The notes beneath the pieces are model-generated. The model saw only the letters and a list, made by a program, of their open reading frames with translations, searched no databases and had not been told where the DNA came from. A stretch of 17,603 nt of DNA from a virus. Lineage: Duplodnaviria; Heunggongvirae; Uroviricota; Caudoviricetes. Below, piece by piece: positions 2,792-14,885 of the stretch (its first letter is position 1; every line of letters begins with the position of its first letter). Where the stretch lies: IMG/VR virus record IMGVR_UViG_2703718840_000011; one strand, given 5' to 3'. The translations under genes and the position numbers were made by a program.

Positions 2792-3376
2792 TTACTCCAT
2801 AACAGGGACAGCAGGCCACTCAATATCCGGTGCTACTGATGTATCAACACGGTTCAGCAACACCCGATACTTTTTCCAGGCTTCCAGCAATGAGGTTTCT
2901 TCCTCCGTTGCAATTTCCAGATCTGCAGCATCCTGAAGCGGCGCAATATGCTCACTGGCTACCTGCATCAGGTTGTTTTTTGTTTCTTCCGCCTCCCGGA
3001 TCCGGAACAGTTTTTCTGCTTCCGTATCCTTCACCCAGGCTGTGCCGTTCCACTTCTGAAACTCCCCTTCCGGCGATAACCAGGTAACATTTTCCGGTAA
3101 CGGACCGAGTTCAGAAATAAATAACTCGTCCCCTGACGCTACGTCATAAACCGTTTTACCCCGATGGTCTTCAACGAGATGCCACGATGCCTCATCACTG
3201 TTGAAAACAGCCACAAAGCCAGCAGGAATATCTGGTGGTGCAATATCGGTACTGTTTGCTGGCAGACCTGTATGAGGCGGAATATATGCGTCACCTTCAC
3301 CAATAAATTCATTAGTTCCGGCCAGCAGATTATAAATTTTTATGGTCCGTGCTTGTTCACTCATTCTGAATGCCAT
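2792..3376 (-). CDS. tfa: Tail fiber assembly protein (Tfa family, lambdoid type)
   Basis: 194-aa [57 protein letters not shown]... closely matches Tfa proteins of E. coli lambdoid prophages as I recall them. Start overlaps the stop of the upstream stf-type ORF (TAATG). Confidence 0.85.
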
Positions 3377-4455
3377 TATGCAAGCCTCACAATATAGTTA
3401 AATGCGATGTTTTTGACGGTGTTTTCCGCGTTACCCGCAGCGTTAACGGTGATGGTGTGTCCATGTGAACCAATCGCAACGGAGTGCGTATGCGCACCAA
3501 TACCTACAGTATGTGCATGTGCGCCAGAACTTGCTGCAGTACCAGACAGCGAGTGGGTATGAGCACCTGCTGACTGTGTCTGAATACGTTGATAATACGA
3601 TCTATAGGAAGAAGTCTCCGGGCTTACTTGATACTGTGAATTCTGGACATAAGTGAACCCACCGCCATCATAAAATGCTAACGCAGAACCGCCGCCTCCT
3701 GGCCAACGAATACCATTACCATGAGTATGAACACCGGCAGACCCCGTAGAGCCACTCAGACTGTGCGTATGCGCCCCGGTGTTATTCGTGGATTTAGTGC
3801 CGTAATCAAACGACGATGTGGTTTTCGTCCCTAAATCCGTACTGGATGCGCTGGCGCTGTGGGTGTGCGATTTAATGCCGTCCTGTTCCTGAGACAATAC
3901 GGCCCGGCCACTGGCGGGTTTGCCCTTGATTGTCCAGCCGCGCATATCTGGAATAACACCTGAAGGATAGGCAATAGCCAGTTTCGGATATGCTGCCTTA
4001 TCAAACGTCTGCCCCTGCATGATTGCATAACCTGCAGGTGGTGTATCTGATGGCCACGGCAGCGGAACACCTGGCGGAAACGCTTCAATATTTGCCGAGC
4101 CGTCAAATTTTACGCCGTTAATTGTCCTTGCAGTTTGCAATTTGGTTGCTGTGCTTGCATTACCCGATAAAGATCCAGTGATACCACCACTCGCGTTTAA
4201 TTTAGTTGCAATTGTAACATTGCCAGTATGGTTACTAATTATAAACGGCCTTAAGCTATTGTGCGTACCAAGACTGTTAAACTCATAACGGTATTTCACG
4301 TTAATCCCGTTCAGATCATCACTACCGGGAACGTTCGTCGAGGCATGGAGATACCCCGCGCTCAGCGTGGACTGATGTTCTGCTGCACTCGCTGGCGTAG
4401 CAGCGGCGACCTGCCAGACTACTGCGGACAAAATAACAGCACATAATTTACGCAT
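3376..4455 (-). CDS. Chimeric ORF: Lom-type signal peptide and N-terminus (~60 aa) fused in frame to the C-terminal part of a side tail fiber (Stf-type) protein
   Basis: N-terminus [59 protein letters not shown] is lambda Lom-like (signal peptide plus first beta strands). The rest is tail-fiber-like ([13 protein letters not shown], repeated HxH motifs, C-terminal [11 protein letters not shown]). Junction near 4270-4285. GAGG RBS upstream of the ATG. Confidence 0.7.
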
Positions 4456-7826: not shown

Positions 7827-8165
7827 CTACTTCCCTGAATTTACGACGAAACTGTTCGAGCGGGCTGAAGCACTCATGCTCATAGCCTTCGCGGAGGTAG
7901 ATAACCCGTTGTGTTTCCGGCTCCCAACGAATGACTCTGACGGGCACTCCGTAGTGATCTTTGAACCAGCGGTTAACTTGTCGCAAAGGACTGTCTCCTT
8001 CTGCCGGTTGAAATCACCCACAGCCCACTCTGCAAAGCTGTGGGTTACAATTTCCCTGTCACCTGGTACATTTACTGCATAGCAATACTCCACCTTCGCT
8101 TTTCCACCCGGTACAGGAAGTGCAATCAGTTGCGAGCGACGGTAGTGTGTTGTTAAACTGTTCAT
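7827..8165 (-). CDS. Hypothetical protein (112 aa) between cII-like and O-like genes
   Basis: Start overlaps the cII-like stop (ATGA) and the stop lies 10 nt before the O-like start. The C-terminal third is low-complexity, so the true extent is uncertain. No family recognised. Confidence 0.4.
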
Positions 8166-8776
8166 GCGTTAGTTTCTCCACAACCAGAAGCAATCGACGC
8201 CACGACGCCCGGAGCTGCACACTCGCGGGCGTCATTACTTTCTGAAATGCAAAAAATTTTGTAGACAAGTGCTGCATGCTCCTGCAGCTTCGAAATTGAG
8301 AGATACAGCTCGTCGTTAATTGCTGTCTTCTCATGCGGTTCCACTACACCGTCTTCGATTGCTGAACGAATCTGTTTTGAATAACTGCCGATCTGTTCAA
8401 TGACTTCCAGCAGACGCTGGTTAATATCGGCGTTGTCCACATCCTCGACGTCAGGAAGAGACACAAAGACGCCATTTGCAGACTGCGCCACAGCATCAGC
8501 AATGAAGTGAGTTCCACCAGCACGTTGCAAAATCATTGCCCATCCCAGCGGGAAAATCTGATCGCCATCAGCACGAAGGCGGTTAAATAATGCGTTCTCT
8601 GTTACATCCAGCCAGTCAGCTGCTTCAGCGTAACCACCCGGCAACTTTGCGATAGTTTTTCTGACAGCTTTCACGTACCACTCAGGCTGTTTTTCTACTT
8701 TCCAGTGATGCTTACCCACGGTTAGCCTCATCGTTCTGTGGTTTCTGTTAATCGATTTATCCATTAGATTTTTCAT
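8162..8776 (-). CDS. CII-like regulatory protein (phage 186 CII / YdaT-like); start uncertain
   Basis: Sits immediately downstream of cro. The segment [25 protein letters not shown] resembles the 186-CII-type motif (LRNKLNPEQPHQFTPPELWLL). The track ORF begins at a GTG (8833) inside cro; in-frame ATGs at about 8776, 8764 and 8731 are more plausible, none with a strong SD. Confidence 0.45.
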
Positions 8777-8957
8777 AAAGCTCAGGTTTAAATGGCAACC
8801 GTCCGCAAGTTCTATATGCAGCTTCTGCTGCACGTCCTTTTGGAATTAACTGGCCCGGACGGTTTCGCCACTGATAAACGGCTTCAGTTGTTATGCCGAA
8901 AAAAGCAGCAACTTTCTCAATACTGCCGAAGTAGCTTTCGATATCGTCAGTTGTCAT
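8757..8957 (-). CDS. Cro-like small HTH regulator (YdaS-type)
   Basis: 66 aa, divergent from the cI-like repressor with a ~97-bp operator-containing intergenic region; GGAGGG RBS. HTH-like segment VAAFFGITTEAVYQWRN. Confidence 0.65.
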   Translation of the reverse strand: MTTDDIESYFGSIEKVAAFFGITTEAVYQWRNRPGQLIPKGRAAEAAYRTCGRLPFKPELYEKSNG

Positions 8958-9054
8958 ACGCCCTCCAAACTAAGTTTTATTAGATGCTAATTACAAATCT
9001 ATCTTTGGTCAATAAAAACTAAGATTACTTAGCAATTCAAGAAATGGTGCTCCT
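8958..9054. promoter_or_regulatory. Immunity switch region (OR-like): divergent promoters with palindromic operator candidates
   Basis: Palindromes TTAGATGCTAA (about 8980-8990) and CTAAGATTACTTAG (about 9019-9032); ACTAAG repeated at about 8969 and 9018. Candidate minus-strand promoter TTGACC-17 bp-TAGCAT whose -10 overlaps the first palindrome. Confidence 0.4.
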
Positions 9055-9681
9055 ATGGAAACGGTTGGTCAGCGTATAAAAGCTCTGAGAAGAGTTACCA
9101 GAACGTCCCAGAAAGAATTGGGTAAATTTTGTGGAGTAAGCGACGTTGCTGTGGGGTACTGGGAGAAAGACATCAATACCCCTGGTGGGGAGGCACTTTC
9201 GAAATTAGCGAAGTTCTTCAATACGTCAATAGATTACATTCTTTATGGTGCTGAGTTTGAAGGCAAACTCGTCACAAACATGCGCAGAGTTCCTGTAATA
9301 TCGTGGGTTCAGGCTGGGCAGTTTACTGAGTGCAGGGCAGCAGAAGTGTTTAGTGAAGTGGACAAGTGGGTAGATACATCATTAAAGATTGGTGATAACT
9401 CATTTGCATTAGAGGTTAAAGGTGACTCCATGACTAACCCTAATGGCCTCCCAACAATACCAGAAGGCGCAACAGTGATTGTAGATCCAGATGCAGAACC
9501 TCGTCATGGAAAAATAGTCATCGCTCGACTTGATGGAACAAACGAAGCTACAGTAAAAAAATTAGTCATCGATGGCCCTCAAAAGTTTTTAGTGCCATTA
9601 AATCCTCGGTATCCCAACATCCCTATCAATGGTAATTGCCTTATCATTGGTGTAGTCAAAGGAGTTCAATACGAACTCTAA
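9055..9681 (+). CDS. cI-like prophage repressor (N-terminal XRE-type HTH, C-terminal S24 LexA-like autopeptidase)
   Basis: 208 aa; HTH QKELGKFCGVSDVAVGYWEKD; C-terminal domain with Ser nucleophile in GDSMTNP and Lys in ATVKKLVIDG, the hallmark of RecA-stimulated self-cleaving repressors. Confidence 0.85.
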   Translation: METVGQRIKALRRVTRTSQKELGKFCGVSDVAVGYWEKDINTPGGEALSKLAKFFNTSIDYILYGAEFEGKLVTNMRRVPVISWVQAGQFTECRAAEVFSEVDKWVDTSLKIGDNSFALEVKGDSMTNPNGLPTIPEGATVIVDPDAEPRHGKIVIARLDGTNEATVKKLVIDGPQKFLVPLNPRYPNIPINGNCLIIGVVKGVQYEL

Positions 9682-9695
9682 GACCTCTCTTCTCT

Positions 9696-9763
9696 AACTA
9701 AGGCACCGAACTAAGAAAAGTTTGGTGTTTTCTCTTGCCATAATAACTAAGTTAAGTTAGATT
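9696..9763 (+). promoter_or_regulatory. PL-like early-left promoter/operator candidate immediately downstream of cI
   Basis: Three AACTAAG copies (about 9696, 9709, 9745), sharing the ACTAAG core seen in the cI-cro intergenic region. Candidate promoter TTGCCA (about 9735-9740), 17-bp spacer containing AACTAAG, TAGATT (about 9758-9763). Confidence 0.35.
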
Positions 9764-9865
9764 TTATGTCAAAGATAACGAACAGGCAGGACGCCCACGA
9801 AGTAGCCGCCGGTGGCGTATGAATGACCGGATGATTCGTTAAATACTATGTGTAAGAGAGCGCAA

Positions 9866-10068
9866 ATGAACCGTTATTTCACATGCTCGTTTTGTGGCGC
9901 AAACGAGCTGCAGGCAAAAAAATCATCGCCAAAGGCGGAAAAGATGAAGTTGCTATCTGCTCTGAGTGCGTAGTCTTGTGTGTCGGAGCATTAATCAATA
10001 TCAGCACAACTATTCAGTTCACACCAAATGAGAATGCGCCTTTAGATGCGCGGAAATCTGGAGGTTAA
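9866..10068 (+). pseudogene. Small ClpX-N-terminal-type C4 zinc-finger protein ORF, split by a -1 frame change at an A7 run (slippery heptamer A AAA AAA)
   Basis: ATG at about 9866 opens MNRYFTCSFCGANELQAKK..., which stops after 35 codons. The track ORF 9883-10068 in the -1 frame continues ...KKIIAKGGKDEVAICSECVVLCVGAL. Joined, they give CSFCG...ICSECVVLC, similar to the ClpX zinc-binding domain (YCSFCGKSQHEV...YICDECVDLC). The frames meet in the A7 run at about 9916-9922. Confidence 0.5.
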
Positions 10069-10076
10069 AGAACAAA

Positions 10077-10352
10077 ATGAAAGTCCAGATTTTAAACAAT
10101 AGTGGTGAAGTCGTTTGGTCATACGACATAGCCGCTCCTGTAGATCAGAGCGGCGATAGCTGGACCAATGGGAAACATCAGATTATGGCTGGAGTTGTAT
10201 TCTCTTTACACCGTGCTTTGGAACAGGCTGAAGTATTTCCATCAGACCCTGAATGGAAATGGCCTTTTTCTATTTGTCCAAATTCGGAGAGCACATTTCA
10301 GAAAATTGGTCAGAAAGTCGCACTCGAAGAGCATCAGCCAACTGTTTTCTGA
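10077..10352 (+). CDS. Hypothetical protein (91 aa)
   Basis: GGAGG about 10 nt upstream of the ATG and immediately after the stop of the zinc-finger ORF, which is operon-like. No family recognised. The 3' end overlaps a convergent ORF. Confidence 0.45.
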   Translation: MKVQILNNSGEVVWSYDIAAPVDQSGDSWTNGKHQIMAGVVFSLHRALEQAEVFPSDPEWKWPFSICPNSESTFQKIGQKVALEEHQPTVF

Positions 10353-10515
10353 TTTTTTCAGGTAACTCGTCGGCATCGCAGAAACAACAACGCTCGATCA
10401 TGTTGAAAGCCGATTCGTAGAACTGTTTCTGCTGAGTGTCGCTGAGACAGGAAAAGAGCGACGTTACGATGATTTTATTAATTGCATTATCAAGTTCTTT
10501 TTCATCAAAAGTCAT
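10270..10515 (-). CDS. Hypothetical protein (81 aa), convergent to the early-left operon
   Basis: Plausible amino-acid composition; AAGGAAAA RBS-like sequence 5-6 nt upstream of the ATG. Its 3' end overlaps the + strand 91-aa ORF by about 83 bp, so one of the two is probably shorter or not real. Confidence 0.35.
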   Translation of the reverse strand: MTFDEKELDNAINKIIVTSLFSCLSDTQQKQFYESAFNMIERCCFCDADELPEKIRKQLADALRVRLSDQFSEMCSPNLDK

Positions 10516-10769
10516 TTGATTTTCCTTTTATGTATACGGGCTTAAAAGGATACCACCGAGCCTGAAGTGGTGAAAAGACAGGCACATAACAGCTAAGTAT
10601 TTTCAACCAGAGAGAATCCTTAGCGTTGTGGTGAATGCGGCTCAGCGCACGCGGGTTAAGGTTGAGGCTGACAGTCGACCTTCTGTGGATACCCACCCGT
10701 CTGGTGTGCAACCTTCGCCAGGCACCGGGAGGCACCCGGCACCACAACTTTATGCTGTGTGTAGTCCTG

Positions 10770-10815
10770 GCGGTACCAGTTTGTACCCTTGCTTCCGGCT
10801 GGTACCGCTCTTTTT
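10770..10815 (+). terminator. Rho-independent terminator inside the early-left transcription unit
   Basis: GCGGTACCAG - 19-nt loop - CTGGTACCGC followed by TCTTTTTAC, a 10-bp perfect stem with a T-run on the + strand. Confidence 0.5.
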
Positions 10816-10904
10816 ACAAAACAGAGAAGAGCATCACCGGACGACGGGCTCATAACCCAATCCATCCGGGCGGCTGCCACCGCAGGTGTTCTTCTCTGTT
10901 TTGT
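10816..10904 (+). other. Large stem-loop: perfect 15-bp inverted repeat (ACAAAACAGAGAAGA ... TCTTCTCTGTTTTGT) separated by ~59 nt of GC-rich sequence, in the leader of the yfdP-like gene
   Basis: Seen directly, immediately after the terminator T-run and about 50 nt before the next gene's RBS. The stem can extend by a few pairs and the interior contains sub-hairpins. Confidence 0.45.
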
Positions 10905-10952
10905 GGAGAAACCAACCGACCTTGCAGGGTCGATATGATGAGGAGCAGCAAA

Positions 10953-11315
10953 ATGGCTAGCGAACGCAGTACTGATGTGCAGGCATTTATCGGGGAGCTG
11001 GACGGCGGCGTATTTGAAACCAAAATCGGCGCAGTTCTCAGTGAAGTCGCTTCCGGTGTGATGAACACGAAAACCAAAGGTAAGGTCTCGCTCAACCTGG
11101 AAATCGAACCGTTTGATGAGAACCGTGTGAAAATAAAACATAAACTCTCATATGTTCGCCCGACTAACCGCGGGAAAATTTCCGAAGAAGACACCACCGA
11201 AACACCGATGTATGTCAATCGCGGTGGTCGCCTGACTATTCTGCAGGAAGACCAGGGACAATTACTGACTCTTGCCGGTGAACCTGACGGAAAACTCCGC
11301 GCAGCAGGTCATTAA
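10953..11315 (+). CDS. Hypothetical protein, 120 aa (YfdP-like by position and length)
   Basis: Start chosen at the internal ATG preceded by GAGGAG with 7-nt spacing. The long track ORF from 10635 is an artefact of GC-rich structured sequence upstream. Length and position match what I recall for yfdP of CPS-53; the sequence identity is not confirmed. Confidence 0.55.
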   Translation: MASERSTDVQAFIGELDGGVFETKIGAVLSEVASGVMNTKTKGKVSLNLEIEPFDENRVKIKHKLSYVRPTNRGKISEEDTTETPMYVNRGGRLTILQEDQGQLLTLAGEPDGKLRAAGH

Positions 11316-13704: not shown

Positions 13705-14885
13705 CCATGGCGGCAAGGCCACGTAAAAAAGAATACAGACATCTTCCTGATTATCTGGTTTTTGATAAAGATCGAGGTGTTTATAAATTCACACTTATTA
13801 CCGGAAAAAAGAAAAATATAGGTAAGGATCGGGCAATAGCCGTTGCAATCGCCAGAGAGTACAACCTGAGGATGCGATCAGAATTATACCCATCAGTGGA
13901 TAATCTTATTAGAGAATCTGGCGGGGTCACCGGAGAAGCAAAACCATTTGCTGAACATGTCGATCACATAATGGCCAGAATTATCGAAGACGAACGACCT
14001 TCCCAGAGTACCTTAGATGACTGGAAAAATGACGCTCTACGCGTAAAAGCATTTTTCGTAAATGTTCCGGCATGCGATATCGAACTTGAACACGTTAATG
14101 CCTACATCAACAAATATCATGCCAGCGCATCCGCAAATGTGCAGAACAGAAAGGTCAGCTTTCTTAAAAAGTTGTTCTCTTATGCGGTCGATGAATCACT
14201 AATGCAGGATAACCCGGCCATCAGAAAAAAAATGCGTAGGACTGATGAGAAGAAAAGACGGCGCCTGTCACTCGAGCATTTTATAGCTATCAGGCAGGCC
14301 GCTGCACCATGGTTAAGAACAGCAATGGACCTAGCATTGCAGACTACACATGCACGACTCGAAGTATCGCGAATCCGTTACTCAATTCGCGAACCTAAAG
14401 ACGGTTTATGTGGATGTGTTTGGTTCGAACAACCACAAAATGGCATATATGGTACACTATACATCCATAGGCAAAAAGTACAAAAAAAGGAGGCATCACA
14501 TGTTGCAATACCAATTGGTGAAGAATTGAAACGGATAATTGACAATAGCCGTGACAATGTGGCCAGTCCCTTTGTCGTTCATAGAATCCCAGAACGGCAT
14601 GTTAAACGCAGTAAAGAGGTTTCGCACCCAACTCAAGTTGCACCAGATTATTTGAGTCGGTCATTCTCTTCCGTGCGAGACAAACTCGGACTATGCAATC
14701 ATCTAGCAATGGAACAAAGACCTACATTCCATGAAATAAGAGCTTTGGCAGCTCACCTATTTGATAAACAAGGGATTGATCCGCAGGGACGAATGGCACA
14801 TAGCGATGCGAAATCTACTAAAATTTATACTAAAAATCATATAGATTGGATTGTTGTCCCTCATGGAGAAATTAAAACCGGTTAG
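13701..14885 (+). CDS. int: Tyrosine-type site-specific integrase (lambda Int family)
   Basis: 394 aa. C-terminal catalytic region with H-x-x-R (TFHEIRALAAHLF) and the tyrosine motif (MAHSDAKSTKIYTKNH). Arm-binding-like N-terminus. Xis immediately upstream. Confidence 0.9.
   Translation: MTMAARPRKKEYRHLPDYLVFDKDRGVYKFTLITGKKKNIGKDRAIAVAIAREYNLRMRSELYPSVDNLIRESGGVTGEAKPFAEHVDHIMARIIEDERPSQSTLDDWKNDALRVKAFFVNVPACDIELEHVNAYINKYHASASANVQNRKVSFLKKLFSYAVDESLMQDNPAIRKKMRRTDEKKRRRLSLEHFIAIRQAAAPWLRTAMDLALQTTHARLEVSRIRYSIREPKDGLCGCVWFEQPQNGIYGTLYIHRQKVQKKEASHVAIPIGEELKRIIDNSRDNVASPFVVHRIPERHVKRSKEVSHPTQVAPDYLSRSFSSVRDKLGLCNHLAMEQRPTFHEIRALAAHLFDKQGIDPQGRMAHSDAKSTKIYTKNHIDWIVVPHGEIKTG

Follow-up and report, generated by a model that had tools for sequence, protein, structure and literature searches.

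The 17,603-nt stretch of virus DNA studied here (IMG/VR record IMGVR_UViG_2703718840_000011, one strand; "the window" below always means this whole stretch) originates from a lambdoid prophage of Escherichia coli. We conclude that the segment in front of its yfdP gene, at 10595 to 10960, is probably a non-coding early-left leader of an SfV/mEp460/ST64B-type lambdoid prophage, composed of a small RNA, a terminator barrier, and a junction element. A preliminary description had taken the segment to be a non-coding structured RNA on the + strand, the leader of an operon starting with yfdP, and our analysis supports this; that reading was right in kind (a regulatory RNA leader, a small RNA being one of the options it listed) and erred over boxA, nut, and put. 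The elements on which the argument depends are as follows.

10595 to 10817 (+): match to the full Rfam STnc100 model (RF02076, model positions 1-206), 44.6 bits against a gathering score of 47, E = 5.1e-8
10624 to 10814 (+): counterpart of sRNA-17, 191 nt, from the alignment with mEp460 (locus L004, 2354-2547)
10625 to 10748 (+): 5' domain, with a closing helix GUUGUGGUG (10625-10633) / CACCACAAC (10740-10748) and five hairpins inside
10749 to 10769 (+): single-stranded linker UUUAUGCUGUGUGUAGUCCUG, conserved across several alleles
10770 to 10815 (+): intrinsic terminator with a 10-bp G+C-rich stem (13 pairs in the fold), followed by UCUUUUU
10816 to 10904 (+): three-way-junction RNA, 89 nt; helix P1 at 10816-10835/10885-10904 (20 bp), P2 at 10837-10841/10865-10869 (5 bp, stacked with P1), and P3 at 10870-10873/10880-10883
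10846 to 10858 (+): apical hairpin GGGCUCAUAACCC, the same as the anticodon arm of the E. coli initiator tRNA (three G-C pairs and the loop)
10904 to 10916 (+): conserved motif UGGAGAAACCAAC directly 3' of the junction RNA, from the homologue alignment
10917 to 10932 (+): hairpin CGACC-UUGCAG-GGUCG, from the fold and homologue comparison
10940 to 11315 (+): Shine-Dalgarno sequence GAGGAG (10940-10945) and yfdP (ATG at 10953, stop at 11315), the first gene past the leader

The strongest evidence for the small RNA comes from sRNA-17 of E. coli K1 strain RS218, a discrete 193-nt RNA of a mEp460-type prophage that was defined by 5' and 3' RACE (rapid amplification of cDNA ends) and Northern blotting (Sun et al. 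2020, PMC7719688). By means of the published primers and probe, we placed sRNA-17 on the yfdP strand of mEp460 at L004 2354-2547, with 194 nt between the primer ends, and alignment showed that window positions 10624 to 10814 correspond with it end to end; together with the STnc100 match (E = 5e-8), this bears out the suggestion of an sRNA. The two RNAs are of nearly the same length (191 versus 193 nt), both start with CGTTGTGGTGAATGCG and finish with CTGGTACCGCTCTTTT, and they agree over the first 16 nt, along the 3' strand of the closing helix, and at 45 of the 46 positions of the terminator; like sRNA-17, the window RNA belongs to a lambdoid prophage and is encoded immediately upstream of yfdP, on the same strand as that gene. 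They are unlike in the interior, where about 100 nt form a different, non-alignable allele, and the ArcA control and trans effects reported for sRNA-17 concern another upstream region. The differing interior agrees with the breakpoint at window position 10768, at which BLAST matches of the segment to mEp460, cdtI, and Stx2c phages break off (mEp460 coverage runs from query base 209), and with the "degenerative sRNA-17" class of the original study, which the window allele fits (PMC7719688).

The same RNA resembles STnc100, a prophage RNA of about 200 nt of which one enterohemorrhagic E. coli copy was confirmed by Northern blot and which has lately been connected with PasD, a group of sRNAs bound by Hfq (Zhu, Shabalina and Storz, bioRxiv 10.64898/2026.05.13.724894). 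The match is the only one of its kind in the window (E = 6e-7 in a whole-window scan). Like STnc100/PasD, the window copy is a lambdoid prophage RNA of about 200 nt with a GGUG.../...CACC closing helix, the hairpin CACCGGGAGGCACCCGGCACCA, and a terminal terminator; the core hairpin CACCGGGAGGCACCCGG and its flanks are identical to the consensus, and the window terminator pairs with model positions 167 to 206. The Rfam scan suggested by the preliminary description thus returned a full-length match for this part of the leader, at a score below the gathering score, and left the junction RNA unmatched. A further difference is location: the STnc100/PasD copies described so far are late-region ones, found either downstream of stx2B or between Q and the lysis genes, whereas the window copy lies in the early-left leader. 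By sequence, the window RNA appears to be a divergent relative of STnc100 and not a certified member of the family. The authors of the sRNA-17 study reported no Rfam relative (PMC7719688), and the mEp460-type allele matched no Rfam family even at E = 1 in our hands; judged by the features that it has in common with each, the window allele links sRNA-17 to STnc100.

A comparable RNA is DicF, a small RNA of the repressor-controlled early dicB operon in the defective lambdoid prophage Qin, with a terminator-type 3' end and with RNase E and RNase III involved. The window RNA is likewise embedded in the early operon of a lambdoid prophage and has a terminator-type 3' end; unlike DicF, it is a much larger element, and the Rfam DicF model (RF00039) gave 15.7 bits versus 48 (E = 2.8). 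PasB was also considered, given an IS009 match elsewhere in the window, and was ruled out, as the preprint places PasB among structural genes (bioRxiv 10.64898/2026.05.13.724894).

The segment is GC-rich, as first noted, with a GC content of 0.575 at 10600 to 10899 versus 0.385 to 0.455 upstream and 0.365 to 0.48 downstream (flanks about 42%), and as a whole (10595-10960) it folds to -151.3 kcal/mol (z = -5.6 versus shuffles). All three structures initially picked out, namely the terminator (folded alone), the long inverted repeat of the junction RNA, and the hairpin before the ribosome-binding site, fold better than shuffled sequences (-21.2, -45.5, and -8.5 kcal/mol; z = -3.8, -7.3, and -2.7, respectively; 0 of 200 shuffles were as good as the junction RNA), and all three are kept in related phages. 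The terminator consists of a perfect 10-bp repeat (10770-10779/10799-10808) with 19 nt between its arms, followed by TCTTTTT at 10809 to 10815, much as had been described. Homologues have different stems (GTGACGCCGA, CGGTGGGCAC, GGATGCCGC) yet always a T-run, and the 3' RACE end of the sister RNA, sRNA-17, coincides with the terminator according to the published primers and our alignment (PMC7719688). Between the 5' domain and the terminator, the linker at 10749 to 10769 is a candidate seed or chaperone-binding region.

Immediately downstream of the terminator lies an RNA element that has not been described so far, is well supported, and is widespread. The inverted repeat seen earlier proved to have a perfect 15-bp core (10816-10830/10890-10904) with 59 nt between its arms, and the wider arms (10816-10840/10880-10904; 25 nt) are 84% complementary. 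In a covariation analysis of 23 distinct sequences, 94.4% of cells were paired and 8 pairs had changed on both sides; 0 of 500 shuffles reached the observed values, and slid partners paired in only 37 to 54%. G-U pairs occur in the helices only when they are read on the + strand. The junction RNA was found on more than 200 IMG/VR contigs, and in every true family copy (chance pattern matches set aside) it directly follows TTTTAC, the end of the terminator. P3 varies in length and is about 25 nt longer in some phages, and a permissive scan returned no Rfam family for the element. With 20 bp of P1 stacked on 5 bp of P2, the structure provides about two turns of near-perfect double-stranded RNA, and this long helix (20-25 bp) may be an RNase III or stability element. 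A variant in E. coli ECDA1023/ECGI0523 (L029/L032) has a perfect outer junction helix, an apical loop UUAAUAA, altered P2 and P3, and another gene downstream.

The apical hairpin of the junction RNA matches the initiator tRNA arm (GGG/CCC stem, loop CUCAUAA) at 13 of 13 positions, and at 17 of 19 when the flanks are included; a check of the tRNA sequence itself found it with 100% identity in each of the 5426 E. coli genomes, at a median of four copies per genome. In a sample of the family that was anchored on the outer helix and drawn independently of the loop, we counted CUCAUAA 19 times, CUCAUUC 15, UUCAUAA 6, CUCAUUA 4, and CCCAUAA twice, besides others, so a tRNA-like loop with U33 and a purine at 37 is not conserved across the family. 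This variation weakens mimicry of tRNA-fMet as a family property, and we treat the tRNA-like loop as a curiosity with a low probability of leading further. We likewise rejected pairing between the apical loop and the start codon region (CUCAU/AUGAG), which can be drawn in many variants, as changes in the loop are unmatched at the start.

Between the junction RNA and yfdP, homologues carry a near-invariant GGAGAAAC(C/U)AAC just after the junction and then the hairpin noted before the ribosome-binding site, CGACC-TTGCAG-GGTCG at 10917 to 10932. Its stem differs between phages (CGACC/GGUCG, GGCGG/CCGCC, GCGCC/GGCGC, and others) and its loop stays U(U/G)GCAG-like; the first gene past the hairpin and Shine-Dalgarno sequence is yfdP-like in most phages and RdgC-like or other in a few. 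The 13-mer TGGAGAAACYAAC, which is degenerate, occurs twice without mismatch in the window, at 10904 to 10916 (+) and, as UGGAGAAACUAAC, at 8168 to 8180 (-), the two copies sharing 13 to 17 nt. The (-) copy forms the ribosome-binding region of an unannotated 112-amino-acid (aa) open reading frame (ORF) at 7827 to 8165, the ATG of which overlaps the ymfL stop (ATGA); no start codon follows the (+) copy. At the base of the junction helix (window 10903-10938 and homologues), a short frame also opens with (G/A)UG-GAG-AAA, and in several unrelated variants its UGA overlaps the downstream start codon (AUGA). We did not accept it as a leader peptide: lengths and frames are inconsistent, and some variants have ACG or a stop after 3 or 4 codons.

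The 5' domain is deeply conserved. In a pattern scan with one genome per species it was found in Citrobacter, Buttiauxella, Phytobacter, Rouxiella, Pantoea, Aeromonas, and Massilia; on visual inspection we discounted, as matches to the pattern alone, the hits in metagenome-assembled genomes of Bacteroidia, archaea, and others. It follows cI-type repressors in the window, SfV, ST64B, and LLS (a Cro/cI pair in Aeromonas) and, in Pantoea and Rouxiella, lies between the gene for the antiterminator Q and those for holin and lysozyme; a hairpin with a T-run stands 3' of the domain in nearly all related copies examined, the exceptions being Buttiauxella and Aeromonas. Sequence is invariant in the closing helix and in the first and last hairpins (the window hairpins include CCGGG-AGGCA-CCCGG at 10724-10738), with some compensatory changes in the interior helices. 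Put differently, TTGTGGTG...CACCACAA, the closing helix, forms an inverted repeat of unvarying sequence that flanks a variable interior, and at least five interior alleles occur with the same closing helix, adjacent 5' hairpin, and adjacent 3' hairpin.

Several further observations concern this domain. The domain type in Pantoea (L024), Rouxiella (L018), Aeromonas (L028), and Massilia (L013/L025) is the mEp460-type allele. Massilia eurypsychrophila has two copies, one of them a few kb from a tmRNA gene, and a tRNA gene lies 3' of the domain in Rouxiella and Aeromonas. By eye, loop-loop pairing GCUGA/UCAGC is possible in the window allele (10641-10647 and 10667-10671), where it would join the first and second hairpin loops, and in the mEp460-type allele (L004, about 2372-2380 and 2470-2478) GCUGAU/AUCAGC would join the first and last. 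In Buttiauxella (L019/L020, about 3816-3880), the 5' domain is fused directly to the GGAGA motif and the hairpin before the ribosome-binding site, by an apparent deletion between similar UGUGUGUA strings that removed the terminator and three-way junction; because this prophage lacks both, the modules of the leader are separable. Riboswitch-like switching was rejected (alternative pairings of the 5' domain with the terminator, sought by eye, were not conserved between alleles with the same terminator), as was a self-cleaving ribozyme suggested by a hammerhead-like CUGAUG...GAAA in the mEp460 allele, for which Rfam gave no match.

Taken together, these elements suggest how the leader would work. 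Positions 10624 to 10814 would yield a folded small RNA, some 190 nt long, that is allelic to sRNA-17 and belongs to STnc100/PasD as a divergent member. In a lysogen, transcription arriving from upstream would stop at the terminator at 10770 to 10815 and the small RNA, which may have trans-acting targets, would accumulate; the terminator would thereby shield the genes from yfdP through int, with their excision and recombination functions, and keep them silent. Transcripts that read through would at once form the three-way junction at 10816 to 10904, the 20-25 bp helix of which, likely an RNase III or stability element, would split the small RNA from the mRNA and set the mRNA 5' end, ahead of the small conserved hairpin and the yfdP ribosome-binding site. 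Long RNase III-type helices in the lambda N leader and the dicB-dicF operon are parallels. The barrier role fits published data for RS218, in which yfdP has 0.49 normalised reads in the wild type and 47 when the interior of sRNA-17 is replaced by a cassette (PMC7719688).

Some points weigh against this account. The STnc100 score lies under the Rfam gathering score (44.6 versus 47), and since the interior is unrelated in sequence to that of sRNA-17, expression of the window allele is extrapolated. Neither a promoter scan nor the homologue alignment yielded a convincing conserved sigma-70 promoter just upstream of 10624, and the 5' end of the small RNA may therefore stem from processing of a longer transcript. 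Derepression of yfdP in the mutant may be read-through from the inserted cassette, and RNase III cleavage of the junction helix is a prediction from its structure. Finally, the 5' domain is kept as far as Aeromonas and Massilia, beyond what an ordinary base-pairing sRNA would need, and it may have a further function besides its sRNA role.

One such function would be antitermination. The segment had been proposed to hold a boxA, nut, or put-like element, and the first two did not survive comparison: the boxA-like CGCTCTTTTTA at 10806 to 10816 consists of the terminator's 3' arm and the T-run behind it, and where a CGCTCTTTA-like nut-site boxA would be kept, CGCTCTT is replaced in homologues by CCGTCCT, CCGCCCT, CCGACCT, or GCACCTT (within CCGTCCTTTTT, CCGCCCTTTTT, CCGACCTTTTT, and GCACCTTTTTT). 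The statement that no N-like protein is evident was correct, there being none among the ORFs between the repressor gene and yfdP by ORF list, Pfam, or phrog matches; with neither a conserved boxA nor an N-type arginine-rich antiterminator in the operon, a nut site is not indicated. The leader resembles that of lambda PL in having a long hairpin between a promoter-proximal control element and the first early-left gene, but it is without conserved boxA, boxB-type pentaloop hairpin, or N gene, and a full terminator precedes the hairpin. A cis-acting antiterminator like the put RNAs of HK022 would substitute for N, with the 5' domain enabling polymerase to read through 10770 to 10815 and later terminators. 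Like put, the window element is a structured RNA from the early leader of a lambdoid phage that has no N; it heads operons with terminators, both after cI-type repressors and, in Pantoea and Rouxiella, between Q and the lysis genes, a hairpin and T-run follow each related copy examined except those of Buttiauxella and Aeromonas, and the domain is conserved from E. coli to Massilia. Unlike put, which has two stems in about 70 nt, it is a five-hairpin domain of about 125 nt with no sequence similarity: an nhmmer profile of putL/putR, which were numbered after the cryo-EM study of put, gave, comparing sequence only, a best E of 1.6 to 2.7 in the window against 1.3e-20 and 3.1e-17 for the HK022 controls, and 0.8 to 7, none significant, across the window and six relatives. 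A short resemblance to put GCGGGUUAAGGUUGA turned out to be one arm of an unrelated hairpin. HK022 carries one put copy per early operon, whereas the window has a single STnc100-like match in 17.6 kb including the start of the early-right operon, and the late-operon copies occur in phages that already have Q. Moreover, the sister RNA ends at its own terminator by 3' RACE and yfdP has few reads in the wild type, so the sister element does not suppress its own terminator under those conditions. In view of the missing putL/putR similarity, the single copy, termination in the sister allele, and the presence of Q in the late-operon cases, the put-like alternative is disfavoured and we consider it unlikely.

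Two other explanations would remove the RNA from the argument altogether. The inverted repeats could act as DNA, as ends of a mobile element or as a protein-binding or recombination site, with RNA structure incidental, and the invariant closing-helix repeat around a variable interior and the mosaic breakpoints at module borders (e.g., 10768 and 10811) would suit this; against it, the sister allele was detected as RNA (PMC7719688), the G-U pairs of the helices would turn into A-C mismatches on the opposite strand, the element always points the same way as the genes downstream of it and comes with a terminator, and all hits that retain the wider architecture are in prophage leaders. We therefore regard a purely DNA-level role as very unlikely. 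The other explanation is a protein-coding one, with the segment being either a gene that has decayed or become frameshifted or else part of yfdP, extended at its N terminus. The only NCBI annotation of the segment, from the Prokaryotic Genome Annotation Pipeline, is indeed a "frameshifted hypothetical protein" pseudogene at the equivalent of 10628 to 10938 (+), the yfdP frame is open from 10635, some phage records have hypothetical proteins annotated across the segment, and phage 118970_sal3 has a longer yfdP-type protein. The segment is also less ORF-poor than had been stated, being crossed by ORFs of 75, 49, 80, and 161 aa and by the upstream extension of the yfdP frame, although none of them has a Pfam match. 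Homologues differ in length by indels that are not multiples of three (1, 2, 20, and 25 nt), unrelated alleles are swapped in the interior of the 5' domain with the helix ends retained, and the RNA helices show compensatory substitutions; because of the indel pattern, the compensatory changes, and the lack of family matches, we exclude protein coding as exceedingly improbable. A non-coding early-left leader thus remains our preferred reading of the segment.

The genomic setting is consistent among related phages. The segment at 10500 to 10960 is 100% identical to several chromosomes and has at least a partial match in 2785 of 5426 complete E. coli genomes, and it is also found in Shigella serotype-converting phages, Salmonella ST64B, and some Stx2 phages. 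The order repressor, gap, yfdP-type gene is common to the window, SfV, ST64B, mEp460, and LLS; phiES15 and F1055 match the segment only in parts and have another first gene (kil; recombination-associated protein). The window is collinear with strain 98218 from about 5680 onward, so the NCBI annotation of that strain could be transferred, and the features upstream of the leader are as follows.

8757 to 8957 (-): cro-like gene, transferred annotation
9055 to 9681 (+): LexA/cI-type repressor gene, transferred annotation
9735 to 9763 (+): candidate early-left promoter (PL analogue), TTGCCA-17-TAGATT, by consensus matches
10270 to 10515 (-): 81-aa gene (phrog_3311), function unassigned, which separates the small genes near PL from the RNA element

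Downstream, yfdP is followed by yfdQ, yfdR, small genes, and the integrase gene (annotated at 13707-14885, with an open frame from 13701), all on the + strand; with this order after cro and the repressor gene, the + strand is the leftward early direction of a lambda-like map and the direction of the cI-type repressor gene. The promoter-like site holds an operator-like repeat (9745-9762) that resembles two repeats (8967-8983 and 9016-9032) between the cro-like and cI-like genes, and a PL analogue at this site is plausible. Between it and the RNA element are a ClpX-zinc-finger-like ORF, a 91-aa ORF (phrog_3195), and the 81-aa gene on the opposite strand. The first of these, a small ORF at 9866 to 10068 (+), encodes a C4 zinc finger of the ClpX type (Pfam zf-C4_ClpX, E = 1.5e-8 after repair; phrog_5259); it is the first ORF past the candidate PL, is split by a frameshift in an A-run (9917-9923) into ORFs 9848 to 9973 and 9883 to 10068, and is unannotated in the matching RefSeq record. 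Elsewhere in the window, tail-fibre and tail-fibre-assembly genes (2792-4455) lie only about 1 to 2 kb from early-right genes, and collinearity with strain 98218 is lost left of about 5680, which suggests that the prophage is mosaic or has been rearranged. The IS009 match from Rfam (221 bits) at 2835 to 3033 (-) falls on coding sequence, since it lies entirely within the tail-fibre-assembly ORF at 2792 to 3376 (phrog_105). In the early-right region of ST64B (L003, 21-97, -), Rfam isrK matches above threshold with 64.3 bits.

The small RNA family has already been described, and the window copy is a new allele of it; what had not been described is the junction RNA and how deeply the 5' domain is conserved. 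A broader reading, which we hold to be doubtful, is that the 5' domain defines a deep superfamily uniting sRNA-17, STnc100, and PasD and that the junction RNA is an undescribed cis-regulatory RNA with a specific binding factor. If so, a domain with the same closing helix (GUUGUGGUG/CACCACAAC) would head early-left and late operons from Escherichia to Aeromonas and Massilia, mostly before a terminator, a placement that would suggest a conserved role in transcription or processing and not the base-pairing of an ordinary sRNA, and the junction loop, usually with CAU, could for example bind a component of the ribosome or of initiation, a nuclease directed at tRNA (for which it would be a decoy), or the region of the start codon. 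In the sRNA-17 mutant the transcript that changed most was that of yfdP, with a 96-fold rise (PMC7719688); if the terminator is a barrier, this rise could be a local cis effect, not trans regulation. About half of complete E. coli genomes have at least part of the leader, and a stretch now called a frameshifted pseudogene or hypothetical proteins has its annotation corrected. Three prophage RNAs named separately (sRNA-17, STnc100, and PasD) are joined into one family, and the junction RNA becomes a candidate for RNA family databases and a possible processing or translational control element.

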